The translations under genes were made by a program, and so were the position numbers. Under the pieces are notes generated by a model. The model was not told where the DNA came from. It searched no databases and was given only the letters and a program-made list of their open reading frames with translations. 64,000 nucleotides of DNA from Obrimoposthia wandeli (Eukaryota): the NCBI GenBank assembly GCA_977020255.1, contig CDROCS010000752.1, forward strand, positions 62,001 to 126,000, read 5' to 3'. Below, in pieces: positions 1 to 20,175 of this stretch (its first letter is position 1; each line of letters begins with the position of its first letter).

Positions 1-448
1 TAACATAGTTTATTCAATTTAAACTATTAATAATTATTGAGGATTCAAAAACAGTTTCTTCAAAATATAACTCACGTCCTTACTAGTCCTTCTAAGCGTT
101 TAATATTTTAATAATTTTAAAGAAGTGTAATAAACTACTTAAAATTGTATAATACAGTATTTTAGGATTCTTATATCTTATCAATAATATATATCATTAG
201 CAGTAGAAAGTACATTTATATTAAAGGTTTAGAAATATAAACGTGTTTCATAAGATCAGTTTAAATTGTTTTATTACTTCAAAACATATAAGAATTGCTA
301 CAATAATTTGTATCAATTCAAACTTTTATATATATTTTAGATATTAGTTTTATATATTTAATATTTACAAAATTGGGGCTTTAATAGGATTGTAAGTATA
401 TTATAGTTGTTATCTTTAATTGATTTTTCAAGACTCATACTCTTGCAC

Positions 449-955
449 ATGTTGACTTCTTCATCATTAAAAAGAGAATTCGATAATGAAGACGACTTGA
501 CAATTGACGATGACGACGATAGATTATTTGTCGGTTTATCCATAGATCTGAATTATGAGTCCATTTTCCCGGACACTCCGATGTCTAGTTACAGCGCCAG
601 TTCAACAAGTATCAGTGACATGAATTTCTTGGAGGACTCTGTGGTAAACTACGACAATAGCTGCAGCAGCAATAGTAGCAATTTTGTAATTAGTGATGAC
701 GATCTGAGGGAAATGTCTGTGAAGGAATTCAATAAGATAACAAAGTCTATGTCAAAAGATTCCGTTCGTTTGTTAAAGAAACGAAGAAGGCAGCTGAAGA
801 ATCGGATATACGCCAAAAGCAGTAGGAGACGGCGTGTGGAAGGATTTCGCCATGAAGACGTTCGAGACCGTCTGCAGCAGCTGACGGCGGAGGTGAGCCA
901 GCTGCGGAGGGAAAGAGACTTTTATAAAAGAATGGTGGAAGAGTCCGTCAGTTGA
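449..955 (+). CDS. Maf-family bZIP transcription factor-like protein with acidic N-terminus
   Basis: ISDDDLREMSVKEFNK...LLKKRRRQLKNRIYAKSSRRRR...LTAEVSQLRRERDFYK matches the Maf extended homology region, basic region (Maf-specific NRxY) and zipper ending ERDxYK. First ATG is at 449. Possible 5'UTR intron 392-432 (GTAAGT...TTTTTCAAG, 41 nt). Confidence 0.9.
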   Translation: MLTSSSLKREFDNEDDLTIDDDDDRLFVGLSIDLNYESIFPDTPMSSYSASSTSISDMNFLEDSVVNYDNSCSSNSSNFVISDDDLREMSVKEFNKITKSMSKDSVRLLKKRRRQLKNRIYAKSSRRRRVEGFRHEDVRDRLQQLTAEVSQLRRERDFYKRMVEESVS

Positions 956-2871
956 TTTCAGTCGGGAGCGCTCATTCGTCTTCTACAATTATTAATCTGC
1001 ATTTGAGTTCCGTCTTGTTCTCTTTTCGGTGCTGCTGTGTCGTTGGGGGTGAAGTTGGCCTAGTTGTGAGGTTATTTTACTTTGTTTAAGGTTAATTTTC
1101 GTTTTTGTGGGACATTTTTAGCGTTTTTGTGCCAAAAACCTTTGAAAATAGGGAAAATTTTTCGATTAAAGAAATATTGGTTGAGGAATTTAGATTAGTT
1201 TGTTTTTAATGAATGCAAATTTGTTTTGAATATTCAAAAAGTATAAAAATGAGAAAAAAACTGTTAAACTAAACAAAAATATCAATAAAAATGATTTTAT
1301 GCCCAAAATTTAGCACATTCTTTGTTCTAATAATAAAATCTATGATTTATTTATATATTATGATGACTTATTCTATTTAAAAATAAAAAACTGAATGATT
1401 TTTACATAAAACTGTAAAAAATCTAATTTTAGACTTTCAGGAAAATTTAATTAATGAAATGGAAAATTATGAGTATTACAAAACAGTTCAGAATACTTTA
1501 AAGATATAAATGCAACTTAAAAGTCACACTAAGATCGGTCCAATGAAAACTGGAAAGGATTTAATCAAAAATTGGGAAACTGAATATGCTGTAACTATCA
1601 AGGAGAACAAATAAAATCCGAGAATATTTATCCAAAGAATCTCATTATAGTGCAATTTTGCACAATAAATGTTCAGTTTTAATGTCCCCCATATTTATAT
1701 AAACTTCCAGAAAGTGAGAATCCAAGTTCAATTACAGGAGCAGAAAGGACGATAGTAGAGGACTGGCAGCTCAGAGATTGTGTTTACCGTGGGTATGCGT
1801 ACAAGCCGTACCACAGATTGTCATAATCGGGGAGAAAGTGTAATAATAGTGAAATATTCGGAAGACACCTTGTTGTAGGATCGCAAAGATTAAGTCCATT
1901 TCTGTCAGAAGATAATGGTGAATTAATTGTGTGGTTGCATCGGCGCTGGGGAACCTTTTACGAATTATGAACAACTAGTTTTGTATGAATGGGATTGGCA
2001 AGTGAGGCCATGTATGAAAAAAGAGTTTCCATAAAAACCATCATTGTTTGGACTATGATATTTGTAAAAAGTGTTTGAAAGTCCTTTAAAGTTTTGATTA
2101 AATCACACATCAAGACGTTTTTGTTTAGAAAATCCTGTAGTTAAATACTCAAAGTAGCTGATCAATTATAATTATTAAAAGATGAAGCTCTACAGAAGGT
2201 CCTCGCATATTCAAAACCTTTTGTGGTGCTTGTCACTTAAGTTTGATTTAAAAAGACGCTCCTCTACGACTCGAGAACTCGGGCAAGCGGTCGTTGCATT
2301 GTAATTGTAGGTGCTCTTGTTGTAATAAAAAGTAAAGGTGACCAAGTTATTTTAGGATATACAAATAAATTTTAAACTATTATAAAGATCTCTGATTTCC
2401 ACTTTTGATAACTTCTCCTGTTAGTTTATACTGACCTTGCAACTTCATTCAACATTTCAACCTAATCAGTCAAGAATGAAAAATCCATTCCAACATGTCT
2501 CGTTTGATTATCTAAAATTTGAACATTTCTTTCATTACTCTACTGAGCTTGAAAGTCGCCTCACTTGGGGAAAATTAACGACATCCTCATTTAGCGATCC
2601 AAGCATTTGAAAAAAACATCTGAAGAAAATCCAAAGAATATAATATAATTTTGGAAAAAATTTAACTTTAAAACTGCAGTTGAAAATATCAAAATGTGTC
2701 ATTCATTACTTATGTTTCTTTCTTATAATTAAAGTACAATATATTTTAATGACTCTTATTTTTGTTGTTCATAGTGATTCTTTTTCTTTCTATTTTTGAA
2801 AAATTACCTAAATCTAAAAGTAGGCTGCCTCTTATCTGGGGGTCATACATTATTCTTTGATATATAATAGC

Positions 2872-3062
2872 CCAACACCCACCACCCAACACCCAACGCC
2901 CACCGCCCAACACCCAACACCCACACCACCCACACCAACCACACCACCCATACCACCCACACCAACCATACAACCCACACCAACCATACCACCTACACCA
3001 ACCACACCACCCACACCACCCCACACCTCCCCACACAACCCCACACAACCCCACACCACCCA
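2872..3062 (+). repeat. C/A-rich low-complexity tract with ~9-bp period (CCACACCAC/CCACACCAA/CCATACCAC)
   Basis: Directly visible, lies just downstream of a TATATAA at 2861-2867. Confidence 0.85.
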
Positions 3063-3064
3063 AA

Positions 3065-4207
3065 TTGATTTCGCTGTCCCAGCCGGAGAAAGTCCTCGCA
3101 CCAGACTCAGACGAGGAGCTGTTCACCGATGACGTACCGTTGGATGGGGAGGAGGACTTGACTCCATTCATCGACGAATGGATACAGCCAAGTATCGGAG
3201 CCCCAGGAGCCAACGATTCGATGGTGGCAGAATTGGACGAGGACGAGTGGCACCTGTTCACCGACGATTGGGATGGTCTCACTCCCTCTGCTACTCCAAC
3301 TCCGAAAGCGGATAATACAACGCCTGAACCATTCAAAAGGCCGAAATCTCCGATACGTGCTGTTAGGAGAATAAAAGCGACGAATGAGGTTAAACCTCAT
3401 TTATTTTAAATGTTTTTTAATTTCATTTTCAGAAACTTTAACTGGATTTGGCACCGTCAGTGACCATGGCGGAGAGGCTCATAGAACCGCAGTTCTTGGC
3501 GAGTCAATGCAGCCAGGAGCTGCCAAGGAGTGAGCTCCGATACCTAGCGTCTCCAGATAATTTTAAGGTAAATTATTTAGATATTAAATTTAATAATTCA
3601 CATAGATGGAGAACATTCTCGAAGAGGCGATGCCTATTCAACCGGTGGATAGGAAGCAAGCGGGAGTTAAGAAACCGTAACGCCATCGAGTCAAAACCCA
3701 CACGGGATTAGTCCACCGTCAAGTCAACGACGCCTGCAGGAGACATCAAATTTGGCCAGGGCTTGGGAGACTGCATCTCCAACAATCAGCCAGAACTTGA
3801 AGAGGGCCTGGGATGAAGCTGGATTGGACGAATTCCTGGCGGAACTGGATACACCGGCAATGCTTCCAGATTCGCGAGGGAAACAGGATGTCGTCTCACG
3901 CCAGCTTCAGCGTGAGAAGGAGGAGAAACAGAAGAAAGCCTCACGGAAGAGGAAGAGGACTTCTATGTCGGGGCCATCAACATCGGTTGCACCTCCTCCC
4001 AAAAAGTTGCGGCAACTATTGCCAAAACCTGAGGGAAGGACAATTGCTGTACAACAACCGGTGAAGCCAAAAAAGAAACCGGGCCGGCCAAAGAAGAAGG
4101 AGCCAGTACCGCTTTCTCCAATAATACTTAGTCGAAGGGATTTCGATGAGGATGATCCCAATGATGACTTTGTAAAGATTTTTAAGAATATAATTTATAA
4201 AAATTAA
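3065..4207 (+). pseudogene. Three-exon accessory gene: acidic/aromatic N-terminus, basic C-terminus with AT-hook-like KPGRPKK; one nonsense, one frameshift
   Basis: GC-rich exons are separated by AT-rich GT-AG introns 3389-3432 (44 nt) and 3568-3605 (38 nt), both phase 0. In-frame TAA at 3439 and a frameshift near 3670. Start codon not located. Confidence 0.7.
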
Positions 4208-4425
4208 TTTCATGTGTTTTCTTCTTAATATTTATTTTTAAAAATATTTAAATTTAGAAATATTAAAATACTATCTTTAAATTTATTAGGTTTAAATGCA
4301 ATGATAAGTTATAGATTTATTAAACTCTCATTTGATAAATAAAAATATATCATTTAATTGGATTAAAACATATCTTAAATTTATATATATAGGTTCAAAT
4401 TTATTAATATCTTCATAATTAAAAA

Positions 4426-4704
4426 ATGGAATTCATTAAAATGAAGAGTCTGGTAACGAAGATTGAAGAAAACATTCGGAGAAATGAGAAGAAAGGAGAC
4501 TTAAGAAAGAGGGTCCTCAATCAAAATTTGTATACTGCTGTCGCGACTGAGTGGAATCGTCGGGTGGAGATACAAGATAGGCTGCTAGCAGAACGACGTA
4601 GGGTTGTGGAGTGGAATAAGAAGATCGAAATGGAAAAGAAGGTGATGAAAAAGAAGAAAAGAGTTATATCGTCGAGGAGCAAGAAAGAAAATCCTCCAGA
4701 TTAA
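4426..4704 (+). CDS. Small basic coiled-coil protein with SERTA-like motif
   Basis: Intact 92-aa ORF. SLVTKI...DLRKRVLNQNLYTAVATE resembles the SERTA consensus SLxKL...LRRSVLIxNTLRxIxxE. Family assignment is tentative. Confidence 0.6.
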   Translation: MEFIKMKSLVTKIEENIRRNEKKGDLRKRVLNQNLYTAVATEWNRRVEIQDRLLAERRRVVEWNKKIEMEKKVMKKKKRVISSRSKKENPPD

Positions 4705-4819
4705 ACCGGAAGAGGGTCTTTCTACAAAAAAATAAATGTTTGATTATTATTTTATCTATATTGATTATGTTACATAACTGTCTAAATATAAACAAATTTA
4801 TATATAATGTTTTTGTAAG

Positions 4820-5041
4820 ATGGATAATAAAAATTGGAATAAATTATACATTAAATTATCTCCAGATTTAATGGAAGATTATAAAAAAAATTACTTTTCA
4901 GAAAATGATACTCTGGAAATTGTTGGAAATAAAATATGTAAGTTAATTTCGAAATATTTAGGTATGTTTACATTTAATATAATTTATTTAATATTCATAG
5001 GAGAATTGACAATATATACCAATCTTAACATGAAAGACTGA
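4820..5041 (+). CDS. Hypothetical Maverick protein with an in-frame 39-nt intron; 3' end probably damaged
   Basis: ORF track 73 aa. AG|GTATGT donor at 4962 and CATAG acceptor at 5000. Confidence 0.45.
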   Translation: MDNKNWNKLYIKLSPDLMEDYKKNYFSENDTLEIVGNKICKLISKYLGMFTFNIIYLIFIGELTIYTNLNMKD

Positions 5042-5129
5042 ATCCTGAGTTCTTTGTTATTTTAATAAATTTTTGATTAATGGTTATTTTCGTATTAAAC
5101 AACGGGATTTGCTACAAATTTGTGTAATT

Positions 5130-5523
5130 ATGCAGGAATATATCATAGATTTTGAGGCTTTCATTAACAAAAATGGAGATTATATTATAAAAGAATTATG
5201 TATTATGGATGTATGCGACGTTTTTCATCCATTGCATTTCATATTTCAAATAGATATCCCATTTAAAAGTTTAGATTATAAGAAAAAATTTACTAATTTA
5301 TATCTAACTAATTATTTTCATTTATTATTTTGATATTGAAAATGGAATTTTTTATGTTTTAGATGAAATGGATGGCAAAAAGTATAAGAATTTTAAAAAA
5401 TATTTTCCCAAATTGAGGTTTAATACTTTAAATATTTCACCTGATCATCTATTAAAAATTCCACGAAATATTTGCTGTCCATATCGTAATTATGGTGACC
5501 ATTGCGCATATAAAAAATGTTAA
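5130..5523 (+). pseudogene. DEDD/DnaQ-like exonuclease-fold protein of the type seen in Mavericks, frameshifted
   Basis: MQEYIIDFEAF...YIIKELCI (D-x-E-x-F...I-K-E) and C-terminal CCPY...DHCAYK motif, with intervening stops/frameshifts. Confidence 0.6.
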
Positions 5524-5705
5524 AGTCTATCTTATTATTACTTGACATGTAGATAAACAATTTTTCTAATTCATAATTTTCATTCAATTACAAATAATTC
5601 TTTTGATTGGAGGAATAAAAAATATTTTTTCGACCATTTAACAGATAAACAATCCTTCTCAATAAAATTCAATTTTTTCTAAGAGCATGTGTGCATAAAT
5701 TTTAG

Positions 5706-5713
5706 TATATAAA
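5706..5713 (+). promoter_or_regulatory. TATA box upstream of spliced pPolB leader
   Basis: TATATAAA about 40 nt before ATG 5754. Confidence 0.45.
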
Positions 5714-5753
5714 CAAACACTTTCTTCATTAAAATCCCCGACTATTTGAAATA

Positions 5754-6536
5754 ATGACTATGGTAAGAATCTATATTTATTATTTCTTTATTAATATTTA
5801 TTTTTAGATTACGTGTAACCTGTTTCCAGCATATTGTGGTGCTTCGGCTCCACATGGAGGAGAGTCCTGCATGGAGATAATGTCCGCCTACTATCGGACA
5901 AAGTCTCGCAGGCTTCAATTCTTCGTCTGCCCTTCTGCAGAACAATGGAGGAGAAGGACTTTCGAAACTTCTTCGGTGAACATCGAGCTCACCTATCCTG
6001 TTTCACGGCCAACAACAAGAAGAGGGATATCGTGCAATTGGTGCGAAATTCACAGGTCGCTCCAGCTCCTGCTCCAATTCCAGTTGCAGTCGATCAACCC
6101 TTTTACGGTCCTGCGATTGGTCTCCTGTCTCCTGATTCTGCACCATCCACTCAAATGAATAACAATGAGTGGATGAACGACATCTCCCAAGAAGATTTTG
6201 AGATGGAGCAGTGGAGCGACAACTGCTGGTTGGAGACCACCGAGAAATCCGATTTCGTCGAGTTCACGAACGACAGCTGGATGGATTCTGTCAATGAAGA
6301 GGACTTCCAACCAGCTACAGTTGGATTGCCTTCATTAGGTACTTTTTTATTATTATTTTAGTGATTATTTTTGAAAATAGTAATTATATATACTTTCTTT
6401 TTTTTTTATTCAGGAAATACCGTGATACAGCCGTCGTCCGCTACGATAGCTATGCATCCCCCATCGCGAGTGCCTACGCGCCTTAGAGGTAATAATTTTA
6501 AAAATATATATTTATTTTTTAATATATTTATTTCAG
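5754..6536 (+). pseudogene. Spliced 5' exons (9-nt micro-exon, Cys/His-rich then acidic-Trp exon, short exon) joining in frame to the pPolB reading frame
   Basis: Introns 5763-5807 (45 nt, GTAAGA), 6339-6413 (75 nt, phase 1) and 6489-6536 (48 nt, phase 1). Splicing 6338 to 6414 joins ORF 5834 to ORF 6371 in frame. A 1-nt frameshift near 5933 restores CPFCR. Confidence 0.6.
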
Positions 6537-9500
6537 CAGCATCATCCTCTACAACAGCCGCTTCTTCATCGGCAATGCCAGTGAATACCTCAGCTACTCC
6601 AACTTCAATTGCAGCATCTACAACTGCAACTGTATCATCATCTGCGGCAACACCACCAACAGCAGCCCCTTCCACATCACCTGCGATTGCCTCAACATCG
6701 ACAGCATCACCAATAGCAGCACCTTCAACCTCAGCTGCGATAAATATAACTAGTTGTCTTCCCGTTCAATTAGAGGGAGTTTTGTCAGTGACTGTAGGAA
6801 GAAAGAGGCGAGGCCAATTTCTTTATAAGGTCCCACCCAAAAAACGTAGAGAAAACGGTGCTACTATAGAGTATCACCTAAATAATAAATATGTTATAGT
6901 TAAGGTGCCATTAGAAAATGAAATTTTATTAAACGTAGGTGTAGATTTAAATATTGAAAGTCTTTTAAAATCAGAAGTGACTAAATTAGGACAGGCTAAG
7001 GTTCAATTTTGCGCAACAGTGCAGTTTAAAAATGTCAATGAGGAGACTAAAACTTGGGTAATTTCACATAAAGCAACTGTCTTCTATGATAATTTTGTAA
7101 CTGAAATTGGAAGAAACCTAGATGAAAGAATTGCTAATTATAGTGAGTTAAGTAGTGGATGGACTTTAGTTAGAATTCACGATCTTAGCTTTGTTCTAAC
7201 TTAGTTCACTGACATGATATATCTTTCGGGGAGTTAATACATTCCTTCACCTAGATCTCTTCAACTTTCACGTTCCATTGTTAACATACAAAACAGTGAT
7301 AACCTTTGCTTTCTGTATAGCGTGTTGGCCATTCTCAAAATGGATGTCATTACTGAGCATAGAGAGCGTGTCAGTAAATATACCCATTTTTAAATGAATT
7401 GCAGTATCATGGAATACATTTTCCTGTTAAATTAACTGCGATATCGAGATTTGAACACATTAATAACTTCAAATATAATACTGATATCCCAGTTAATGAA
7501 ACAGATGAAGAAATATTTAAAAATCCTTTTGTAGATGATTTTATAGGAGCTAAAATGAGGGGACTCAGGTCAACTTAATTTTGCTCGAACATAATAAAAA
7601 ATTTCATTATGCTGCAATTCCTAATTTAGATCGTTTTCTAAATTTAGATAATGGATCCTTACCGGTTAGGATAAGGTGTAAGTGGTGTCATAGATGTTTA
7701 CATGGATTCTGATCCGAGCTCTCTTACAGCAAACATCTGACATTATGTTCACTAAATCCTGATGACAATACGCTATATAGCATGCCTAAGGATAAGGATT
7801 TAAAATTCAGGGATTGAGCAAAATGCATACCCGTGGCATTCAGAGTGTATGCAGATTTTGAGTCAATTCTAGCATTGCACGACCAGTATGAGAGTATTCA
7901 CCTACCGGCTTCGACAGGACTACTATTCTTAGGCCCCAATATTACACAGTATCATAAATTTTCCGGTCCAAATTGTATTTTAGATTTTATGTTAAAATTA
8001 GAAGAATTAGGAACAACAATTGTCAAACCGTGGTATGATCTCAATGCTCATCAAGCAATGATCATGACAGGCATAGACTGGGTTAACTTTAATTCTTGTA
8101 GATTATGTTATTTGTGTGGAACCCAGTCTAAGTTAGTCAGAGATCACGGTCATGTTACGGGGCGATACTTGGGAGAGGCGTGCAACCTCTGTACCTTAGC
8201 CGTCGTCTCCCTAAAAATCCACGCATTCCCATCGTGTTTCATAATCGCAAAGGATATGATTTGCATCATATACTTAAATACGCGTTGGGTACATTAAGCT
8301 CTTGGGAAATTTCATGTATACCTCAAACTTCAGAGAAATATTTATCTTTAACTGCATATACTGAATTCTGCAGTTTAAGATTCATAGATTATCTGCAGTT
8401 TTTGAGTGGGTCTTTAAAAAATGTAACGGCATCTTTAAATGCATGGCCAATCACACAGTCAGTGTTCCCAGCTTCTGTTAATGATAAGGGATTTTTTCCG
8501 TATAAATTTGCGAAAACCTTTGCAAATTTAGAAAATACAACTGAAATCCCACTCATAACTGAATTTGAGGGTGTAAGTCTTCAAGACTATAATGAGGTCC
8601 GTACATTTTGGGCGAATAATTGTCGAAATCTTCTAGAATATATGCTTTATTATATGAAGTTAGACATTTATCTTTTAGCTGATGTTTTAGAGTCCTTTCG
8701 TGTAAAATCTTTAGCAGAAGATGGGCTATATCCCATGCATTTTTTAGGTTACCTGGTCTTTCATGGGCAACAGCAATAAAAACACTTAAAATTAATATCG
8801 AGTTATTGCAAGATCCCGCGATGTATCAAATGTATGATTATGGTATACGCGGTGGAATGACTTTTGTCAACAAACATCATGTTGTCAAAAATCAATCCAC
8901 GGAGATTCTGTACATCGACATTAATAATTTGTATGGGTGGACGCTTACTCAACCTCTACCTCATGCCAACTTTATGATGAGGAAGAGTTGAATAAGTTGA
9001 TGACAGATTTGGCTACAGTTGATACAGTTTCATCAGACGTCGGCTATTTGGTTGAGGTTGACTTAACAATCCATCCCAATGTGCATGATAAATTAGATGA
9101 TCTTCCAGTAGCGCCTGTTCATCAATGCCCACCTAATTCAAAGGTTAAGAAATTATTGTTAACCCATGAAGACAAGTTGAATTATGTTGTGCATTGGCGG
9201 CTTCTTCAATTCTACTTAAAGTTGGGAGCGAAAGTTACTCGAATTCATCGTGCTATAAGCTTCAGTCAAAACCTTTTTATTTAAAGACTATATTGAGAAG
9301 AATTCTAGAAAACGTAATTTGGCCACTAGCAAATTCGATCGGGATTTTTACAAGTTAAAAAGTAATAGTCTCTTTAGAAAAGCTGTAGAGAACTTGCGGA
9401 AACGTATTTGTCTACTGTTTTGCAATGATGAGCGTAAACTAATAACATATACTAGCAAGTACAACTTCAAGCGTATTTTTACAATTGCAGCTGACTTGGT

Positions 9501-10113
9501 AGCAGTGTTATTAAGAAAACAGAGTATGTGTCTCGATCGACCGAGTTATATAAGTCAAACGGTTTTAGACATTTCTAAACTCAGAATGTACGAGCTTCAA
9601 TACATAGAATTAGAGAAATATCGACAAGAATTCAATTGTGAGATCAAATTCGCAGCTGGGGACACGGACTCTTTCTTTTTAGAATGTAAAAATGTTAGTT
9701 TAAATAATCAAATATTACCAGCAATGTTTAGAGACAACTTACTAGATACCCATGAATATCCCGCTAACCATCCTCTACACTCTATGAGTTTAAAGGATAT
9801 TATCGGGAAATTTAAGGATGAAAGCGAGGGACAGGTTTCGTATGATGATTGTATTTTCCTACGCCCTAAATGCTACAGTTTACATTCATCTAATAATACA
9901 TATTCAATGAGAGCAAAGAGTGTGGGAAGAAAAAATCTTACACATGAGGCCTACCGGAACGTTTATAATACTGGGGGTATTGAAAGCGTTGAGCAAACTA
10001 GATTTATTTCAAGAGCCCATCAACTGTATTCCCATAAATCAACCAAAATCGTCTTGAGTAGTAATGACGACAAGCGCTTTTGGGTAGAAAAAAACGCTAG
10101 CCTGGCTTATTGA
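6537..10113 (+). pseudogene. polB: Protein-primed family B DNA polymerase (pPolB), multiple stops and frameshifts
   Basis: SGW; NIQNSDNLCFLYSVLA...HYAAI (vOTU-type Cys and His boxes); C2H2-like finger; YADFES exonuclease motif; EndoVII-like CYLC..VRDHGHVTG; FHNRKGYD; KGFFPY; polymerase motifs DINNLYG, KLKSNSLF and GDTDS; RPKCY; DDKR. Confidence 0.95.
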
Positions 10114-10392
10114 CACTTCCGAATTTAAACAGTTTTCATTTTTTGATTTTTTTAGTTTAGTTTTCTAAAATTTTAGATCCCTATGGCACCTTGACTCTAA
10201 CATTTTGTTATTTCAATACATTTTTTAGTATGGACCTTATCTTTGCTGACAGATTTCATTGTGATGTTGTTTTTAATAAATGTATTAAAAAAAAATCGTC
10301 TTATGTCTTTTATTATTTTACCCTTATATTTTTTTAGGGATTTAAAAAATAATTCAAAATAAAACATTTAAAATTTTTATTTTTATAACACA

Positions 10393-10774
10393 CTAATCGT
10401 TTTGCAACGATAACCATAAAATACATAAATGTCCACAGTTTCTCGTCGCATGATCCTGATATTGTATTTTGTTGTAAAATACTCTTCTTCGTCCTTTTTG
10501 AATAGTTGAAACAGGTTTGTGTGGATAATACATTGCAAGTGGATCAAATACGTTTATTGTCCACTCTCTAACATAAATAGATATCCAATGTTCTCCCAGT
10601 AAATTCGAAGTATGAGTATTGATAATGTAACCTCCAGATTGAAAAAATGGGATCATATCAATTGGATAAACTCCATTGAATTTATCACCCAGGACCTTCT
10701 CTGCTGATTCTTGTACTTGTACTGAACTAAATAAAAATTAATAAATATAAATTTTAAAAAATGTCTTACTTCAT
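10393..10774 (-). CDS. Adenain-like cysteine protease; 2 exons (10774-10770 and 10726-10393)
   Basis: GEHW, FDPL, QYQD and NCGHLC catalytic motifs. ATG AA|GTAAGA...TTTAG|T TCA splices (43-nt intron) to MNSVQVQESAEKVLGDKFNGVYP in frame. Confidence 0.9.
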
Positions 10775-12000
10775 TCTATAATAATACAGTTCTGTTTTTT
10801 ATTGAATTGTATTTCCGAATCAAACACTCCGTAAATAAGCACCGTAGTACAATGTATTAAAGCTGCATTGAACTTAATTTCTATACGTAACTTTCCATCC
10901 TTTGGTAGTTGGCATTGGTTTATATCAAAGTCTGGTGCCAAAACAAATGTGAAGAAGGAGCAGCTGCTTTTAAACTCAGTGAAAGAAATACCATTATTTA
11001 TATTTTTATCTAGTTGGCCCAAATTCCGAATAATAGATTGCGTATAAGCCAAAGCATAAGCGTTACCTTCGAAATCTGTTTTATATGTTTCGCGATAATC
11101 AGTATTTCTTGAAAGTGTCACTGAACCTACATTAAAATTATCAGATTGAGTTGCATCTGTCGTATAATTTCCTAGAAACTTTGCAGTTTTTTAAAAAGAA
11201 ATTAAAATGAATTTCGGTAATCTTACATCACCAAAAATTTGATTCTTATTAAAAGCTTGTGTACCCGTACCTAAAGAGTAGGATATAAGTTTAGTTTCTC
11301 TTATAGGATAACAAGCATTGTTTTTTTCCATTCCTATATTTTGTGTCATTAAAACTGATTGCTCCGTTTTAACTCTTTGGACATACAATTTTGCATCTAA
11401 AATATCAAGTCTAGGTTTTAGAACGTCTGTGCTTATCAAAGAAAAATTCCATTTATTACGTTTCAAACGAAGATGTACATTAACACCCGGAATTAAATAT
11501 TTCGGTTGTTCAAAGAAATTCAATCTGAAAGACCCACACATTTCGTAAGCTTTAGAACCTGCAATCCATTCTTTGGAAGTTGCAACTGTTTTATCAATGG
11601 TTGCCAAATTAGTATTTTGAGTATCAGTACTATAATTCAAAAGACTTTCAATCAAAGCTTTATGAGCATAGGAAGAATTTCCACCTTCAATTTTGACATT
11701 ATTAAGAGTAACAATGGCATCATTAACTAAAGAATTAAAGAGATAATTTACAGGTGTTACATCGGCATTTTCTTCTAAATTAGTACCATCCCGATTTAAT
11801 ACTTTTATTTGAACATAAAGCAAAGTATCATTCAAATCTAAATACTCGCTATTGGAACCATTAATATTAAATTCTAAATCGGTTAAAGTGGTTTCTGAAA
11901 CTGAGTTAACTAGAAATATTTCTTCAAAGGAAGCATTATCTACAACTACTTGTGGAAGTGGTTTATCAAAAATACACAATTCGGTTTTGGCACAACTCAT
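10771..12000 (-). pseudogene. Double jelly-roll major capsid protein, one in-frame stop at 11191-11193
   Basis: MSCAKTELCIF...(C.KSELDLF-like), LDLNDTLLY, YLIPGVNVHLRL, FVLAPD, G.LRIEIKF. ORFs 11191-12000 and 10771-11121 are in the same frame. Confidence 0.9.
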
Positions 12001-12037
12001 TTTGCAAATTGTGTTCCTTCAACTTTCTTACGTTTGT

Positions 12038-12373
12038 TTATATTGATTTTTTGTTTCTTTTACGTTTAAATCCACTACCTCCTTGGCTTTTATTTGATTT
12101 ACGTTTTCTAATCAAATTAGCAACTTCAGGTAAAACATTATCAAGTTCATCAAGCGCATGCTTCTTAAAAGTTGGTATTAGTTTATTGTCATTAGATGAA
12201 AGGTAATATTTTCCTAATTTTGATATAAATCGCCCGAGTCTCTTTAAAAGAGGAAAGGCAAATCTACCTAATGTTCTAAGCCAGCCAGGTCCATATTGTT
12301 TATCAACAAAATATGGTAATTCTCCACCTTGTTGACTTTGACTATAAGCTTCAATTATTGCCGGATTCGCCAT
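12038..12373 (-). CDS. Basic virion core/membrane-active protein (pVI/pVII-like) with QxGG motifs and an amphipathic helix
   Basis: QQGGELPYF..QYGPGWLRTLGRFAFPLLKRLG, basic tail, and typical position between mCP and MCP. Confidence 0.7.
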   Translation of the reverse strand: MANPAIIEAYSQSQQGGELPYFVDKQYGPGWLRTLGRFAFPLLKRLGRFISKLGKYYLSSNDNKLIPTFKKHALDELDNVLPEVANLIRKRKSNKSQGGSGFKRKRNKKSI

Positions 12374-13409
12374 TTTGTTTTCTTAAATGTATTGTTAAAC
12401 TTGTCTTAGCCCCGTACGTGAAATCTATTAGTTGTCCGGAATCATCTCTAATATTTACTTCAATATTGTTTATAGAAAAGAAAGCAACTGGAAGATACAT
12501 TGGTTGATCTATATGCATATCGACAACGTCCCCACATTTAGTTTCATTTTGAGAAATCCATATTGTTCTCAAAAGTGGAACTCGTTGTCCTCCTACAAGC
12601 GTTGATTCTATTAATTTAGTATAAATATATAAATTATTAACAAGATTTAAAGGTTTTGCCTTATTTTTAGCTTTTATGGTTTTAATTGTATGGGTTTCAA
12701 AGGTATTTCTGTTTAAACCAAGGTTTTTAGTGAGTTTATCATCAAAGGAAACCCGTGTTATGCTGCTCTTTACCGCAAACGTTAATTTATCATTTAATGT
12801 TACACATTTATCCAAATATCCACTACATTCCTTCTGTATTAATTTACATAAATCCACTTCACTATCTATTTTATAATCTTTTAAAAGCTTTTTCAGTTCC
12901 ACTACAGTCTTTGGTCTCATTTCAAGTAACAACACTTTTGCTACTCTACCAGGAACATTTCTAACCGATTTAGATGAAACTATATCCCGTTTATTACTAG
13001 CTACTGTTTGTTCACTATCAAAACTAAATAGAAGAGCTTCTTTTTTAGATTCAATGTTTATTTTAATAACTTGAAGATATTTTAATCGATTTTTAAATCT
13101 GACTTTGTTATTTTCAAATATTACTTTCACTTCTTTATCTATACAATTGCAATAGAATTGTCCTTTACTATCAAACCCGATCACAACTTCAGTTGTTTTT
13201 TCATGATCAACTTCTTTTGTAAACGAAATATGTGAGTTTTTTTTAATAGTAATTGGAGAATATTAAAAAGAAAATTCTGTTAAAGCCGCTTCCCATTCTC
13301 CTTGGAGATTTATAGGATTTTCCCAATCGATAATATAGCTACTAGCGTAATTATCTGGTTGAGTCTTCGGACATCCGTTACTAGGTAAAACCATATACAT
13401 AGACTTCAT
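12351..13409 (-). pseudogene. Minor capsid protein (penton-like single jelly roll), one in-frame stop near 13263
   Basis: N-terminus MYMVLPSNGCP..QPDNYAS...GEWEAALTEFSF and C-terminus LYIYTKLIE..VGGQRVPLLR...PMYLPV...IEVNIRDDSGQLIDF...LTIHLR. The ATG overlaps the integrase stop (ATGA). Confidence 0.88.
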
Positions 13410-14431
13410 ATTATATTAGATGCTGATATCCAAGTTGGATCTGAATAACCATGCCATTTAACATAGTATTGTTTATGTTTACCGGCACCCATAGATTTTA
13501 ATATTTTTTGAATACGGAAAATTTTAGGTTTATTTGATATTACTTGTAGTTCTTGCTCGTAAAATTTACCGTGGACGATATTTTTGTCAGCATCTTTAAT
13601 AGTATACATTATTGGATTACTCTTTTGATCAATTTTACTTATACAAAATATTTCATCGCTCCAATTCTGATCAAAGTTTTTAAATGGAGTAGAGCTAATT
13701 TTCGAAATTCGAACATATTCGTTTTTCTTATATTTAGCTTTTTTAATATTTTCTTTTTTATTCCTCTCCATCCAAATATCCATAGAGTTTTTATTAGTAA
13801 CATCAACAGGTCTCATTCCCTTGAGACCTCTATATTCAGAGTGATTATATGGATGTATTATTTTAGGTAAAACTTGGACCCATTTTTTATTTCCTTCTTT
13901 TGTGAAATACTTTTTTATTTGTTCTCTTAAAGTAAGATTAAATATTTCTACTACTGCTGTTTTGTACTGTGAAAACACAGAGTAGTGATTTATATTATTT
14001 TGTTTAAATAATTATTGAACTTGCTTATTATAAAATTCTTTTCCTAAATCAGTTTGCATATTTTGTGGAATGTTCTCTTTTAATATCTCTTTAATGGCTT
14101 CAAGCATAGCTATTGAAGACTTAGCTTTAACTGGAATTGCACGAGCAAACCTGCTAAATACATCAATACATGTTAAAATATATCGATATCCCTTATTAAT
14201 GGAAGAATATGGGATCATCTCCATCAAATCCATTTGCCATAAATTATTAGGACTGCTGGTTTTGTAAGCTCTAGTCGGAAACCTTCTTCTCATCGACATG
14301 TTCAGACTGTAGGCTAACTGGTCGCTCAGCCATTTCTGCATTTTCTTGTAATTTTGTTTTGTTCTTTTTGCTAATTTTGAAACTCCGGTGTAGCCAATTG
14401 GATCTTTTGGATTGAACCATATCTTCTCCAT
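13406..14431 (-). pseudogene. int: Retroviral-type (rve) DDE integrase with C-terminal chromodomain-like region, one in-frame stop at 14012-14014
   Basis: WQMDL, IDVFSR, QTDLGKEF, VVEIFNLTL, YNHS, YYVKWHGY. Both ORF halves share one frame. Confidence 0.93.
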
Positions 14432-14489
14432 TACAACAATTTGAATATATAGAAAATTTAAATTTAGGTAAAGAAGGGTTAGCACCCAT
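14271..14489 (-). CDS. Small ORF with N-myristoylation (MGxxxS) and Cys-Cys motif, overlapping the integrase start in another frame
   Basis: MGANPSLPKFKFSIYSNCC..., 72 aa. The first 19 codons lie outside the integrase ORF. Confidence 0.4.
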   Translation of the reverse strand: MGANPSLPKFKFSIYSNCCNGEDMVQSKRSNWLHRSFKISKKNKTKLQENAEMAERPVSLQSEHVDEKKVSD

Positions 14490-14517
14490 ATCTTTAGCTG
14501 ATTTTTGAATTAATTGT

Positions 14518-14865
14518 TTATGAACGTGTTGCAGCTATAATACTACTGATAATTGAAGCAACAACTAGAATAACAGCCCCTATGAAACCACCATTATGTT
14601 TAAGAATAATATTTCGTTTCCTTTTTTTACTTTTTAAATTGGCAATATCTGGAAGAGTTTTTCTATATTTCTTTAATATATTTTTACGATTTCCAACTTT
14701 TACTCGACCCAAAACTATATTATACAAAACTTCCAATAAATCATCTACAACAAAAGATGGAAATGCTTTAAGAATAATCATTCTCTTATGAGAAGAGGCT
14801 TTGACTAAAGCTTTAAAATAGGGTATGTTTCTTTGTATTTTTTTCATTTTAATAAAAAGGTTCAA
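14518..14865 (-). CDS. Adenovirus pX(mu)-like core protein: basic body, GG-F cleavage-type site, hydrophobic C-terminus
   Basis: ...KRKRNIILKHNGGFIGAVILVVASIISSII. The likely ATG is slightly downstream of the ORF start. Confidence 0.75.
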   Translation of the reverse strand: MNLFIKMKKIQRNIPYFKALVKASSHKRMIILKAFPSFVVDDLLEVLYNIVLGRVKVGNRKNILKKYRKTLPDIANLKSKKRKRNIILKHNGGFIGAVILVVASIISSIIAATRS

Positions 14866-14877
14866 TTTGAATATTGT

Positions 14878-15017
14878 TTATATTCGAAGCCATTTAAGTT
14901 TTTTTTTATTTCTAACTACAGATTTGATTAATTTTCTCACTTCTTTTTTCTTAATGATTATTTTTTTGATTTCTTAGGCTTTGCTTTACGTTTTACTATC
15001 AACTTCGTAAAAGGCAT
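14878..15017 (-). pseudogene. Very small Lys-rich protein ending KWLRI, frameshifted
   Basis: MPFTKLIVKRKAKPKKSKK / ...VRNKKKLKWLRI* read from the minus strand in two frames. Confidence 0.35.
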
Positions 15018-15081
15018 TGCAAATTAATTTTTTATAATTGTTCTCTATTTGTTTATAAACAGTTACTCCCTTAGAATTAAA

Positions 15082-15672
15082 TCAGTCTGTTAAAACACGT
15101 AAATCATCTGGGCAAGCTTGTGTAAAGTCAATAAATATATACCCATGTGCTTGTTTAGCAGCATTGTGGAATGAATCAACTAGAAAGTTCTTATTTTGGG
15201 GAAGCGCCTGTCTGGCCACAAAATCTACATCTGTTTGATCTCTAGAATTTTTAAATAAAACTAAGTAATGTATATTAAGATTTCTTGTTCTATGGTGACC
15301 TCCTTGGTGAAAATGATTTTGAGTGATAAATATAACTGTTACTTCACGATGTCTTGCAATCTTTGTAAATAAATTATTAAAGTCCGATTCCTTGTTAGCT
15401 TCCTGATACAAATCATCAATTATTATTACTTCTTCGTTTTTCAATCTTTCACACCAATTTGCATCAAATCCTTCAATAAATTGTATTCCCTTAAACTTAC
15501 AAACTTCTGTTTTGGTTAATCCGCTTTCTCCTCCTCCACCATGATGCCAATAAATATTTTTGAAACTAGATTTGAAAAGAGATTCATTTTGCAACAATTT
15601 ACATACGAAATGTGTCTTTTCACTTCCACTGGGACCAACTATTTGAAATACAGCATTATTATTTAGCTCCAT
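15082..15672 (-). pseudogene. A32/FtsK-like DNA packaging ATPase; Walker A mutated (GPSGSEKT), 3' end damaged
   Basis: IVGPSGSEKT, Walker B IIIDD, KIARH, IFITQN, YLVLFKNSR, GYIFID. Confidence 0.9.
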
Positions 15673-15709
15673 TGCATATACTCTTTCATTTTTAATATTG
15701 TTTATATTG

Positions 15710-16051
15710 TCATAGAAGTTTCCTTATTGAAATGTACAATGTTAGAGCTATTGTAGATGAAATACAAAAATTAATTAATGAATATTTGACTATAATTTTA
15801 TTTATTTGTGTACGATTTCTAAATTCTCGAATAACGTGTGATCTAACCAATATTTCAATGTTATCTCTTGTTATATCATTATTTTTTAATTCTGATAAAA
15901 TTTCTTTACTCCTAATTTTTCCAGAAAATATTTCGTCGGAAAGACGATCCACTTCATTGTCTCTATTTATAGTATTATTTATTTGAAACAATAAGTTTAA
16001 ACGGGTTTGTTTATAGAAAAGATAACAAGATGTAATAAGATATATTTTCAA
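15710..16051 (-). CDS. Hypothetical protein with C-terminal hydrophobic helix
   Basis: ORF track 113 aa ending YSLINFCISSTIALTLYISIRKLL. True start uncertain. Confidence 0.4.
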   Translation of the reverse strand: MKIYLITSCYLFYKQTRLNLLFQINNTINRDNEVDRLSDEIFSGKIRSKEILSELKNNDITRDNIEILVRSHVIREFRNRTQINKIIVKYSLINFCISSTIALTLYISIRKLL

Positions 16052-16510
16052 AAATCAAATCAACGATGTCTGGATAATCAAAATTTTTCAATCCCAATAT
16101 CATAACTTTACCACTGGAAAATATATTTACACATAGCGGTATAAACTTCAAATAACTGAGAGCAGGAAAACTTTCTGGTTCAAACATGCATTCTTCTTTC
16201 ATTTTCTCTGCAGTTTTAAAAAGATTTATCTGTTTCCCAAGATTAGCCGAAATTGTGATTGATTGTATTGCAGTGATTCGAATTCCAAATGGTAAATTGA
16301 ACCCAGGTATTGGTATTTTGCATCCCATAACACGACAATTTCCTAAAAGAATTCAATATGAAATAAAATAAAAAATTAACCTGTAGGTAAAATAACAACT
16401 GTGAAATTGTCAAACTTTTCCACATATTGTCTCGGCTTCCATTCATTGAATGGTAAGTACGAAACATCATCTTCTGTTCTACCTTTATGATTTACATTTA
16501 CAAGTTTCAT
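16011..16510 (-). CDS. TATA-binding protein (TBP)-like protein; 2 exons (16510-16381 and 16342-16011), 153 aa, uninterrupted after splicing
   Basis: IQSITISANL...LFKTA..MFEPESFPALSY...VNIFSSGKVMILGLK is a TBP repeat. A 38-nt GT-AG intron (16380-16343) joins VVILPTG|NCRVMGCK, the end of the first repeat. Confidence 0.85.
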
Positions 16511-16683
16511 TAGACTAAAATTGTATTCTGTAAAATCTTCTTTATATATGTCTGAAACTGCTTTTTTATTGCACGTTTCTTGTAATTATCTTGCAAACCT
16601 ATTATAATTGGATGATCTTCCAATCAAATTTGATTTTTAATATGGATTTAACCAATGAGATTCATGACTTTGTTAGAAATTAG

Positions 16684-16690
16684 TATAAAA
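16684..16690 (+). promoter_or_regulatory. TATA box in the divergent intergenic region between the TBP-like gene and the 16722 ORF
   Basis: TATAAAA about 32 nt before ATG 16722. Confidence 0.45.
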
Positions 16691-16721
16691 GAATGCGTCA
16701 TTGGAGGACAAATCACAGTAA

Positions 16722-17204
16722 ATGCATTCATATCAAAGACAATTATCAACGATGGAGGATAGCCAACGGATATTAAGCGGTGACGAAGATTCGGAAATGT
16801 TTGAAGAATCGGATAAGGATATGTATGAAGAAGTGAAACAATATTTCAAATACAAAGTCAGATTTTTGAAGAAGGCTCAACTGATTGCTTTAGTAAATCA
16901 TGTGACAATTGAAAGAAGAAAGTTCAGCTACTATCTATCAAATATTCAAAAACCAGATTTTCAATATCTTAAACAGAAAGTTGAAAAGGCAGTTCCGAAT
17001 TTTACTTTCAATAATAACGAATTTTATATCCGAGGACCCGATGAAGCATTTCTAGATGACTATGAAAGATATGTTGATATTGATGCATTTCCGAAAAAGA
17101 AGCAATGGACTGTAACAATTCGACTTTATGGTTACAAGAAAGATGAAATGGGGACAAAGTTGCCTATGTGGAAAATTGAACGTGCTCATATTTCTATGTT
17201 TTAA
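16722..17204 (+). CDS. Hypothetical protein, acidic N-terminus; possible OB-fold ssDNA-binding protein (paralog 1)
   Basis: Intact 160-aa ORF. The C-terminal WTVTIRLYGY...PMWKIERA motif is shared with the downstream gene. Confidence 0.65.
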   Translation: MHSYQRQLSTMEDSQRILSGDEDSEMFEESDKDMYEEVKQYFKYKVRFLKKAQLIALVNHVTIERRKFSYYLSNIQKPDFQYLKQKVEKAVPNFTFNNNEFYIRGPDEAFLDDYERYVDIDAFPKKKQWTVTIRLYGYKKDEMGTKLPMWKIERAHISMF

Positions 17205-17348
17205 CTTTTGCGTGTAATAAATTGTAATCGGTTTTACTATGTTTCTTTCATTTGGCAATTTATAATCAGTTTTATTTTTTAAATATTTGTATCTTATATG
17301 TATTTATTTTATAAACATTGTATTTTTAATCAGTTTCCTTATTTTAGA

Positions 17349-17753
17349 ATGAATAAGAGATGTGTAGCAAATTTTTATTATCCAGAAATAATTTTAAAAG
17401 GAAAACTATGTAATATATTAAAGAAGCATCAAATTATACGAGTTATGAATCCTGTGAAAATATCAAAAGTGGAGAATAAATATCTCATCAAAATTTTAAC
17501 AACATCTGATATTGATCAATTGAAAAATATTTTGGGATTTTACATTCCTGATTATGTATATGAAGGAAATTGTTTCCAGCTTGAAACTGATCCCAGTCTG
17601 GATTTTAAAGATGATCTAGGATAATTGATTGCTCCAATTCTAGATGAAGAACTATGGAATATCTCAATACGTCTCAATGGATATTTTGCTGATGACGGGA
17701 AAATGCAACCTCTCTGGACTTTGAGTGAAGCCAATATGTTATTTTATGTTTAA
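17349..17753 (+). pseudogene. Tandem paralog 2 of the 16722 gene; one in-frame TAA at 17622
   Basis: Read-through of the stop gives WNISIRLNGY...PLWTLSEA, matching paralog 1. Confidence 0.65.
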
Positions 17754-17930
17754 TAAATGTTTTGGAAAATAATTTTGACTCGTATTTTGTTTTTTCTCCT
17801 CTAAATTATATAGATCTATTTTTCTCTTATAAATCTGACCTAAATATTTAACATGTAGTAATCTAAAATCTTTCATAAAAATAGTAGTAATATATTTGAA
17901 ATCTCGTCTGCGATAAGCCGCCGGGGTCAA
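17739..17930 (-). other. Short hypothetical ORF next to the right terminus
   Basis: ORF track only, with no ATG start. Confidence 0.2.
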
Positions 17931-18053
17931 TATGGATTCCTGTGGTCTTCTCTAACCACTTTTGAGATAAATTTCAAAGTAAAATAAAAAATATGTGGGG
18001 GGAGGGGACCCCACTTCCTCCCTCCTATTCGATGCTTTTTCAATTTTCCCCAG

Positions 18054-18140
18054 ACACACATACACAAAATTTCACTTCACACACATACACGAAATTTCAC
18101 TCCACACACATGCACGAATTTTCACTCCACACACATGCAT
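18054..18140. repeat. Subterminal 25-bp tandem repeat (~3.5 copies, CACACACATRCACGAAATTTCACTC) in the putative Maverick TIR
   Basis: Directly visible. Confidence 0.85.
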
Positions 18141-18197
18141 GGTTTTAAAGGACATTAGGAAAGGGGGTGTGGATTAGACAGGGCACATCCACCTACT

Positions 18198-19475
18198 GTC
18201 GATAAGCACATCGAAACACACACTTGACCTTCCATGATCCACAAGCGTTGTGAAATTGCTGTGATTTAAAGGTTGGGCTATTATCCATCAACAACTCATC
18301 TGGAGGCCCATGTTCTCTGAAGACATCGGTCATGGCGGTAGTCACTGAATACTGTGTCTCATCATTGAGCAACTTCCATATTGTGAATCGGCTTGGTCCA
18401 CAATCAATAATGGATAAGTAACACTTCCCTAAATAATGGGTTACATCACAGGCCAATCGACTCCAACTCGCATCAACTTATAACTCACCATGTTCCAATG
18501 GAATTGGTGCTGGATCTATACTTTTACATTTAAAACAGCGTTCTACGACAGCTGTTACTTCTTCTCGTTTCACATTGAGTTCAGGATACTGAAATTTTAA
18601 AAGATACGTTGTTCTGTCAACACCAAGATGATTCAGGTTGTGCACTGCCAATATTTCTGCTTCATTGCCGATTACGCTACTGCATACCACGCTTGTGCGA
18701 TTGAGCTACTTTTGGGGCACTCTGGTAAGCTCATCAGCTTTGTTTCCTGCAGACTTTACTAGCCTGATATTAACAGTTAGTCTGTATTCTTCTATTATGG
18801 TTTTCAATAGATTCAGTCGCCTATGCGCTAATGCCGATCCAAGACCATGCGTTTTTACTCGTTTGTCTTCCGATGTAATTGACTTTACCCAGCCATGGAC
18901 CGTAGACGAATCTGTATAAACAAAAACTCGCGACAGCCTCCATTTGATCGCACAATTAAGTCCTTTGACAACTGCTTCTAACTCTGCCAAATTGATATGA
19001 GAGGAGTCATCTTCCTTCTGCAACCAACTGAAGTCTTCAACTACCGAACCATCAATTTCCACTACGGCTCCCATTGCAAGACTGCTAGCATCACACCATA
19101 CTGTTCCTTCAATCGTATTCTTCTAAATTCGTAAACATCATTAAGGCATCACCTTTCATTCTCAGCGGAATAATTGAACTTAATTTCTTCTCCAGTCCAA
19201 GCAGATCGACCTTCAATTTGATCTCACTAATCCACTCATCCACATTCGACGTCCCATCGAAAATGCTGATGGTCTCCAGTTCCTTCATAGCCGAAATAGC
19301 TTGTAGTTAAATCCAAGATGGTGTGGAGAACGATATATTCAAATTCTGCTGTTTTACGGATTGTGGAATATTAAAACAAACATCCAACAAAAAAATGATT
19401 ACTTGGGTAATTATATTCAATGATGAAAAGATGGTACGGTACTACGAAAAGCAACTTGTAGGACGGGAACCCAAT
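18198..19475 (-). mobile_element. Gypsy/Ty3 LTR retrotransposon fragment: gag start fused by deletion to RNase H, then integrase truncated by the Maverick
   Basis: ATG 19288 IFDGTSNVDEWI..MKGDA (gag-like); WCDASSLAMG..HINLAELEAV..YTDS (RNase H); HLGVDRT..CFKC (zinc finger); DVTH..IDCGPSRF..MDN (integrase core). PBS-like TGGGTTCCCGTCC at 19473-19461. Confidence 0.85.
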
Positions 19476-20175
19476 TGATTTGGTTTTAAAGCCATATGTT
19501 CAAGTAAGCCGGGATACACCTATAACTTTTATTTTTATTAATTTTATGAGCCTAATGAAACTCCCACCTGATCAAAAAATAATCATTGAAATTTCTGATG
19601 ACATACCACAAAACAGCTCATTGCTTTTGACTATTTCTTTAGCCACCTTGAATTATATAGCAAACAACTGAATAGGTCGACCGGAACTATATACATGAGA
19701 AGTATGTATAAGAGTCGAAAACAACAAGAAATAGGCATCCCAAGCAAGGTATTACAATTACATTTAAAGATCAGTTCAAAAAGTAATCAAGAGCTGAAAA
19801 TATGCATGGGACCATTAAATTAAAATTGACTATATTTATAGTCCTTATCAAGAACATATTAGAGAAAAGCTGAAATCATATAAATAAAAGAAAAATTAAT
19901 TAATATCTAAAAAAGAAAAGAAACAAGAAATAGATAAACTCCAAAATAGAACTGATTAACCTCAGATGACCTGACTGACTATATTCCTGTTTTTAAATTT
20001 ACTAAATAGCTGCCATCTCTGGCAGCGCGTGATTAATCACAAGAATTATTAATAATAGAAGAAACTGCATCAACGTCAGAACCAATAGGGGAGAATTGCC
20101 TCTAAATTCTCCAGAAAAAAACAAACAAAAAACAACTCAGTGTAATATGGGTATAATAAATAATCAATCGCTCAT

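Follow-up and report, generated by a model that had tools for sequence, protein, structure and literature searches.

Animal Mavericks/Polintons (PMC8097293; bioRxiv 10.1101/2022.07.12.499685; PMC8502044) carry a protein-primed DNA polymerase B (pPolB), a chromodomain integrase, an A32-type packaging ATPase, a cysteine protease, and a double jelly-roll capsid protein, and they are bounded by terminal inverted repeats that start with AG and by a target duplication of 6 bp. In the vertebrate and nematode studies, the core genes are characterized as intronless, as an earlier note on the DNA examined here had said, and introns are reported only in the cargo of nematode elements. Under the operational definition of an “intact” vertebrate Maverick, all core open reading frames (ORFs) are intronless (PMC8097293), a described vertebrate trait that lies outside the definition of the family. 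Here, an element of this kind is described from Obrimoposthia wandeli, at positions 3062 to 18197 of a 64,000-nucleotide (nt) stretch (GenBank assembly GCA_977020255.1, contig CDROCS010000752.1, positions 62,001 to 126,000 of the forward strand; hereafter, the window). It has the same genes and, as seen on a sister copy, the same kind of termini and target duplication, whereas its protease and polymerase genes are interrupted, so that it falls outside the vertebrate definition of an intact copy. Comparison with related copies and lineages indicates that the interruptions are very probably old, inherited micro-introns, likely genuine spliceosomal ones, in core and accessory genes of a Maverick clade.

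Spliced DNA viruses are common. Adenoviruses, for example, are spliced nuclear DNA viruses characterized by long alternative splicing from shared leaders, not by micro-introns at start codons. Dinoflagellate polinton-like proviruses also contain spliceosomal-type introns (PMC11957031); those introns, however, are introners, that is, repeated transposon copies that mostly arrived after integration, whereas the ones described here are unique, short, AT-rich, mutually unrelated, and apparently shared by descent. Mirusviruses (PMC12768974) are likewise intron-rich DNA viruses that use host nuclear splicing, morphogenesis genes included, but they belong to another realm and show homing-endonuclease introns and trans-splicing, unlike the minimal introns seen here, none of which lies in the capsid gene. 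Prokaryotic gene callers have been applied in surveys of endogenous polinton-like viruses, with an absence of introns given as the reason (PMC10120064). In the literature searched, which excluded most subscription journals and Repbase reports, no paper was found to describe spliceosomal introns conserved in the core genes of animal Mavericks; the passages matched in PMC8502044, PMC11296320, PMC6431247, and bioRxiv 10.1101/2023.08.22.554363, 10.64898/2026.07.28.741278, and 10.64898/2026.10.13.758929 contained nothing relevant.

Candidate micro-introns and their sister copies

The earlier note had described nine GT-AG segments of the window as tiny introns that had colonized a polinton-class virus genome. 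At the coordinates and lengths given there, all nine have GT at the start and AG at the end, with G+C contents of 0.06 to 0.20. Eight belong to the element; the remaining one (392..432, plus strand, 41 nt) lies outside it, at the 5′ end of a bZIP-Maf gene (ORF 407-955, PF03131). Because this gene is matched only once in the genome, the segment is assigned to the host, as a candidate intron of a host gene, and the placement of all nine in the virus had to be abandoned. The size range of 38 to 48 nt proposed for the class fits the other segments but not that at 6339-6413, which is 75 nt long in the window and 72 to 128 nt long in sister copies. Removal of the protease, TBP-like, and 6339 segments does restore reading frames. 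The protease segment (phase 2) is immediately preceded by an ATG and followed by 110 open codons; the TBP-like segment (phase 1) has 68 open codons upstream and 109 downstream; and segment 6339 (phase 1), which contains two stops, is flanked by 173 and 262 open codons. Segments 4962 and 6489 can be read through in frame in the window copy, and the frame break is visible only in the sisters, where they are mostly 40 and 47 nt long.

The 1.35-Gb assembly contains many near copies of the element, here called family A; sister counts refer to distinct copies that align across both flanks of a segment. The eight element segments were present in all 224 aligned sister junctions, with both GT and AG intact in 211. 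By segment, 29 (3389), 27 (3568), 30 (4962), 25 (5763), 23 (6339), 22 (6489), 28 (TBP-like), and 40 (protease) copies had the segment and none lacked it; of the 50 protease loci, 48 satisfied the alignment-length filter. Thus, the outcome that the earlier note had named as fatal, sister copies lacking the segments at the DNA level, did not occur. Exon lengths hold the frame while intron lengths drift. The GT and AG columns were the least variable, with 11 of 922 cells (1.2%) departing from the column majority, compared to 4.9% in exons and 3.7% inside the introns. Of the frameshifting indels common to several copies, 17 fell in 343 intron columns versus 3 in 1032 exon columns. The segments also have the features of U2-type introns, namely, GT-AG ends, a GTRAG-like donor, a T-rich acceptor, constant position with drifting interior, and phase-matched flanks. 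Among themselves, they are hardly more alike than shuffled sequences (0.60 versus 0.58; maximum, 0.73, versus a shuffle 99th percentile of 0.72), and many similar copies at unrelated sites, the mark of introners, were not seen among the window's own segments, host genes being outside this comparison. A further minus-strand segment (15963-16002) was considered as an intron and rejected, as a start codon lies inside it in the 17 sisters examined.

Introns of the protease, TBP-like, polymerase, and accessory genes

The predicted protease gene lies on the minus strand and consists of exon 1 (10770..10774), an ATG plus 2 nt that overlaps the capsid stop codon; a 43-nt, phase-2 intron in codon 2 (10727..10769); and exon 2 (10393..10726), for which no separate start codon exists close to the 5′ end or ahead of the conserved N-terminal motif. 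The product weakly fits an adenovirus-type cysteine protease: its profile matches the African swine fever virus protease S273R (E value of 0.003) with His, Gln, and Cys aligned, and the gene position is as expected, although no Pfam match was obtained. The His, Gln, and Cys residues and an Asp are invariant in four families.

The intron position is common to seven families of the genome, namely, A, B, D, E, and three further families recovered with an outside capsid query, and to 11 metagenome lineages. Among families A, B, D, and E, the capsids are 49 to 56% identical to that of D. A metagenome scan yielded 30 loci, 17 of which extend to the protease; 15 of these, representing the 11 lineages, share the intron at this site. 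Its length is 37 to 43 nt in 14 lineages and 47 nt in L262 (by eye), and the interiors are about as alike across lineages as shuffles (0.61 versus 0.59). The donors of 14 lineages read GTAAGT (8), GTAAGA (2), GTGAGT (2), GTAAGC (1), and GTAATT (1), 13 of them fitting GTRAG, and the exact phase of ATG, donor, and acceptor is held in 15 lineages. Judged by these comparisons, the intron appears to predate lineages whose capsids are only 46 to 62% alike; as the segments are also mutually unrelated, the notion of a recent or ongoing colonization is not supported. Two loci, L254 and L272, have the protease without the intron, and in L254 a start codon placed directly after the capsid stop leads without a break into the conserved N terminus. 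Quick trees united all intron-bearing rows and L254 in one clade (Shimodaira-Hasegawa-like approximate likelihood ratio test [SH-aLRT] support of 99 to 100), with L272 apart; rows lacking the protease were excluded from the second tree. A constraint grouping the 15 intron-bearing rows without L254 was not rejected (approximately unbiased [AU] test, p 0.49), and a single origin would suffice for the protease intron.

The TBP-like gene, also on the minus strand, comprises exon 1 (16381..16510), which matches residues 2-43 of P0001, a homologue without the interruption; a 38-nt, phase-1 intron (16343..16380); and exon 2 (16011..16342; PF00352), which aligns to P0001 residues 45-149. The segment interrupts a conserved motif, with the sequence on either side collinear with this homologue. 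It is present in 28 of 28 sisters (GT and AG in 25), with lengths of 35 to 41 nt in family A, and it occupies the same site in families B (38 nt) and E (36 nt); two family-B copies have partial deletions there. Conversely, all four family-D copies lack it, and L271, P0001, and P0002 likewise have the gene without the intron. The gene is a divergent, two-repeat cargo gene common to families A, B, D, and E and L271, with two database homologues found; its product could act on viral or host promoters.

Three segments divide the 5′ part of the pPolB gene on the plus strand. The likely start codon (5760..5762), with a second ATG two codons upstream, directly precedes intron 1 (5763..5807; 45 nt, phase 0), which is present in 25 of 25 sisters and is 47 nt long in 22. 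Exon 2 (5808..6338) encodes a Cys/His-rich domain, is frameshifted in the window, and matches the polymerase N termini of families B and D weakly (blastp E values of 3e-4 to 1e-5); two metagenome polymerases (1304 and 1224 codons) open with the same domain. Intron 2 (6339..6413; 75 nt, phase 1; 23 of 23 sisters, GT and AG in 20) is followed by the 75-nt exon 3 (6414..6488; 69, 75, or 87 nt in 20 of 21 sisters) and by intron 3 (6489..6536; 48 nt, phase 1; 22 of 22 sisters, GT and AG in 21; 31 to 50 nt). Exon 4 (6537..10113) contains a Ser/Thr/Ala-rich linker, the N-terminal region, and the polymerase body (PF03175), with several stops and frameshifts in this copy, and matches the polymerase frames of families B and D strongly (E values of 2e-22 and 3e-17). 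The length of the exon after 5763 is 1 modulo 3 in 18 of 22 sisters (505 to 619 nt), and that of the next exon is 0 modulo 3 in 20 of 21. Family B has an intron directly after the same ATG, and family D has a 55- to 61-nt GT-AG segment just before the polymerase start (contigs C5934, C1027, C2398, and C5989); no counterpart of introns 6339 and 6489 was found in these two families, and in L258 and L261 the polymerase begins without an upstream intron. On the reverse strand of L271 (30-377), three GT-AG segments of 45, 53, and 49 nt (phase 1, by eye) were observed in a different 5′ extension leading into the polymerase.

The accessory gene upstream contains two phase-0 introns on the plus strand, one of 44 nt (3389..3432; 29 of 29 sisters, GT and AG in all 29) and one of 38 nt (3568..3605; 27 of 27 sisters, GT and AG in 24; 35 to 45 nt). 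The middle exon between them (3433..3567) is 135 nt long, a multiple of 3, and keeps that length in 24 of 26 sisters. A further intron candidate of 39 nt (4962..5000, plus strand, phase 1) is present in 30 of 30 sisters, with GT and AG in 28 and a length of 40 nt in 27. In family E (C3836, C238, and C2398), an accessory gene upstream of the polymerase has two segments of ∼38 to 50 nt, one of which ends directly at the ATG. A neighboring family-B element upstream of the window (L051:7944-8969 and L052:91-660) carries a BIR- and RING-containing apoptosis-inhibitor gene and a dual-specificity phosphatase; a BIR+RING-like frame is found in family E, too.

As the earlier note had foreseen, ORF-only annotation would truncate such genes: the protease loses its start codon, and the TBP-like gene and the polymerase N terminus are also affected. 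A search of 5.8 billion proteins yielded no homologue of the protease, although 17 metagenome loci carry it, as would be expected if databases built with gene callers lose the protease start; the capsid profile found 7601 relatives at an E value of 0.001. In a viral contig collection, none of 115 candidate stretches found with the capsid profile was confirmed, and the TBP profile gave two distant loci, neither with Maverick context.

The element, its surroundings, and host genes

The assignment of the element to the Mavericks/Polintons, as proposed in the earlier note, agrees with its gene content. Pfam matches in the window comprise polymerase B (PF03175; E value of 4e-10 on a fragment, with long single frames in relatives), the rve integrase (PF00665; 3e-10) with a weak chromodomain match, the Pox_A32 packaging ATPase (PF04665; 2e-6, above the cutoff), and TBP. 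The predicted structure of the capsid protein of a family-D relative (predicted local distance difference test score, 95) is a double jelly roll whose best matches among solved structures are the Paramecium bursaria chlorella virus 1, iridovirus, and virophage capsids (E values down to 2e-16). Together with the protease and the terminal repeats of a sister copy, these features identify the element as a Maverick/Polinton. On the minus strand lie the genes for the major capsid protein (10771..12000), the retroviral-type integrase with chromodomain (13406..14440), each with one in-frame stop in the window copy, and the packaging ATPase (15082..15672); no intron was seen in these three genes in the copies examined. 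A conserved gene at 12351..13405 (minus strand), without a visible intron or a Pfam match, is presumably the minor capsid (PZ) gene, given its position.

The window copy is decayed and left truncated, and stops or frameshifts disrupt its genes for the capsid, integrase, and polymerase. Homology to the sisters starts inside the accessory gene; in comparisons with six long sister stretches, it never begins before 3062 and stops at or just before 18197. Only the right terminus is retained (17950..18197, minus strand), the outer ∼85 nt of which, starting with AGTAG on that strand, correspond to the inverted repeat that bounds a sister on contig C646 on either side; that sister has matching AGTAG-starting ends and an identical 6 bases on both flanks (by eye). 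The expansion is very large: first-look candidates numbered 28,252 for the protease, 42,207 for the TBP-like gene, and 43,345 for the capsid, figures that are not copy numbers. All 150 scored protease matches were 93 to 100% identical to the window protease, the median pairwise identity among 41 distinct protease-region copies was 0.966, and at least seven element families occur in the genome. At one locus (G000:C141:1283740-1287778), the protease region is repeated in five tandem copies spaced ∼927 nt apart.

A fragment of a long terminal repeat retrotransposon (integrase and RNase H; 18193-19310) adjoins the right end of the element. Elsewhere in the window are an 18-nt tandem array (20014-21100), a transposase-like frame (51643-52908) resembling the hAT type, and an inverted duplicate of intronless, 315-codon frames (30075-31022, minus strand; 38274-39221, plus strand) with signal-peptide- and transmembrane-like stretches, the former without a Pfam match.

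Host introns were examined in several gene families. Nine myosin genes gave 81 predicted introns, of which 20 were 36 to 53 nt long, 3 were 26 to 27 nt (likely artifacts), 10 were 56 to 100 nt, and 48 were longer; the short ones recur at positions common to paralogues. Thirteen chaperonin genes gave 57 predicted introns, many uncertain, with the well-matched CCT4 gene having introns of 40, 48, and 677 nt; CCT4 homologues are 60 to 66% identical to those of many animals. Intronless, 550-amino-acid chaperonin matches and stop-free COX1 matches, found together on the same contigs, were both set aside as bacterial. Host TBP genes have introns of 47 and 48 nt. A minimal class of 36 to 53 nt is therefore present in the host, and the element introns fall within it. 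The proposal that the element has adapted to the ∼40-nt intron class of its host holds insofar as that class exists; adaptation itself is consistent with the data and unproven, because relatives in other datasets also show introns of 37 to 47 nt. None of the host TBP-family genes examined has an intron at the site of the viral one, their introns being elsewhere, which argues against inheritance of the TBP-like intron from these genes. At G000:C238:871798-874002, two members of the host TBP family are arranged back to back on opposite strands, each with a 47- to 48-nt intron between the repeats, and intronless TBP-related paralogues occur on C60 and C1092. A multicopy COX1 (C109 and at least seven other contigs) is best translated under NCBI table 9, in which AAA encodes Asn, an indication of a flatworm-type host. 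Another COX1, located on the 27-kb contig C5352, fits table 5 and represents a second mitochondrial sequence of animal type, and many contigs have a bacterial appearance, so that other organisms are also present in the assembly.

Alternative explanations and implications

Secondary insertion of introners has been described (PMC11957031), the genome is rich in repeats, and introns 6339 and 6489 were seen in family A only, all of which would suit recent insertions of introners or small repeats that landed after integration. This explanation is nevertheless highly improbable: not one of the 224 aligned junctions lacks its segment, the protease segment keeps one position across lineages with capsids 46 to 62% alike, other datasets included, and the window segments show no more mutual similarity than shuffled sequences do. 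For the protease and TBP-like segments, it is already contradicted, and the introns appear to be vertically inherited, being neither recent insertions nor introners. Just as improbable is their arrival inside captured host genes, as markers of cargo. Cargo genes of nematode Mavericks do carry introns (bioRxiv 10.1101/2022.07.12.499685), the TBP-like gene is of cargo type, and the polymerase linker and the gene with introns 3389 and 3568 might be captured sequence as well; the protease and polymerase, however, are core genes, so that capture leaves the protease intron unexplained, and both the host TBP-family genes and the TBP-like genes of family D, L271, P0001, and P0002 are uninterrupted at the relevant site.

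The segments might, instead, be AT-rich spacers with chance GT and AG ends between separate small ORFs, the downstream parts having their own starts or being reached by reinitiation. Such spacers would be expected where the protease segment lies, directly after the capsid gene, and they would accommodate the read-through of 4962 and 6489 in the window copy, the polymerases of L258 and L261, and a roughly twofold, nonsignificant motif enrichment. Against them, the TBP-like segment cuts a conserved motif with collinear sides, protease exon 2 lacks a start before its N-terminal motif while ATG, donor, and acceptor stay in exact phase in 15 lineages, and the GT and AG columns are the least variable, so that spacers are quite unlikely, if slightly less so than recent insertion or capture.

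Several points weigh against micro-introns, too. The GT-AG pattern alone is barely above chance in DNA so AT-rich: a motif-only scan of 3062-18197 found 10 segments, compared to means of 4.7 to 5.3 in block shuffles (13 and 19 of 200 shuffles gave at least as many), and recovered only four of the eight element segments; support therefore comes from conservation. Segment 4962 is the weakest of the eight, with only 12 codons, the last exon, after it. Private indels are intron enriched as well (34 versus 19; shared-versus-private contrast, p 0.10), which indicates that part of the excess of indels is due to slippage in A/T runs. The host introns were called by our own spliced alignment, some of them clearly wrongly, the tree cannot tell loss in L254 from an ancestral intron-free state, and splicing itself is inferred from DNA comparison. 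Most sister loci were ranked by how closely their DNA resembles the window, which favors copies with the segment. Two locus sets are free of this ranking: 30 loci from an exon-2 protein search (28 aligned) and 30 from the outside capsid query, all 30 of the latter carrying an AT-rich protease segment, with the pattern recognized in 25. Inspection by eye of the other five showed two intact but offset, one with a changed donor, and two with a changed start codon.

If the segments are old spliceosomal micro-introns, the element would be transcribed in the nucleus by RNA polymerase II of the host, and the host U2 spliceosome would remove its introns at the smallest intron size of the host. The protease, the full-length polymerase, and the TBP-like protein would then need splicing. 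The protease intron may have been gained once, early, near the root of the clade, with later lineage-specific gains or losses in the TBP-like gene and the polymerase 5′ extension.

More tentatively, and with considerable doubt, the codon-2 intron of the protease may have been kept since the early radiation of this animal Maverick clade as a splicing-gated switch. Without splicing, the protease ATG opens a frame of just one or two codons in 15 of 15 lineages, so that protease output would depend strictly on splicing; a phase-2 GTRA donor creates this early stop automatically, and the stop is therefore no proof of regulation by itself. The donor lies ∼1 to 40 nt past the capsid stop and overlaps it in families A, D, and E (by eye). 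Host splicing could thus set the timing and amount of protease made from a shared capsid-protease transcript, and the junction, within ∼40 nt of the capsid stop, would let the capsid message escape marking for decay. The 50- to 55-nt rule for message decay may not hold for this host group. We hypothesize that the intron adjusts protease relative to capsid or protects the capsid message against decay; start-proximal polymerase introns would gate replication likewise.

These comparisons show that intron-free core genes are not general in Mavericks, one clade having an apparently old intron fixed in a core gene for virion maturation. The weight of the finding lies in the fixation of the protease intron across about 18 lineages and in the explicit, published assumption that introns are absent. 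It argues for nuclear expression of these elements by host polymerase, and the many families and copies provide a clean system for the study of intron gain and loss in a virus-like lineage. Finally, the junctions would allow specific RNA tests of Maverick late-gene expression, which bear on the question of virion formation.

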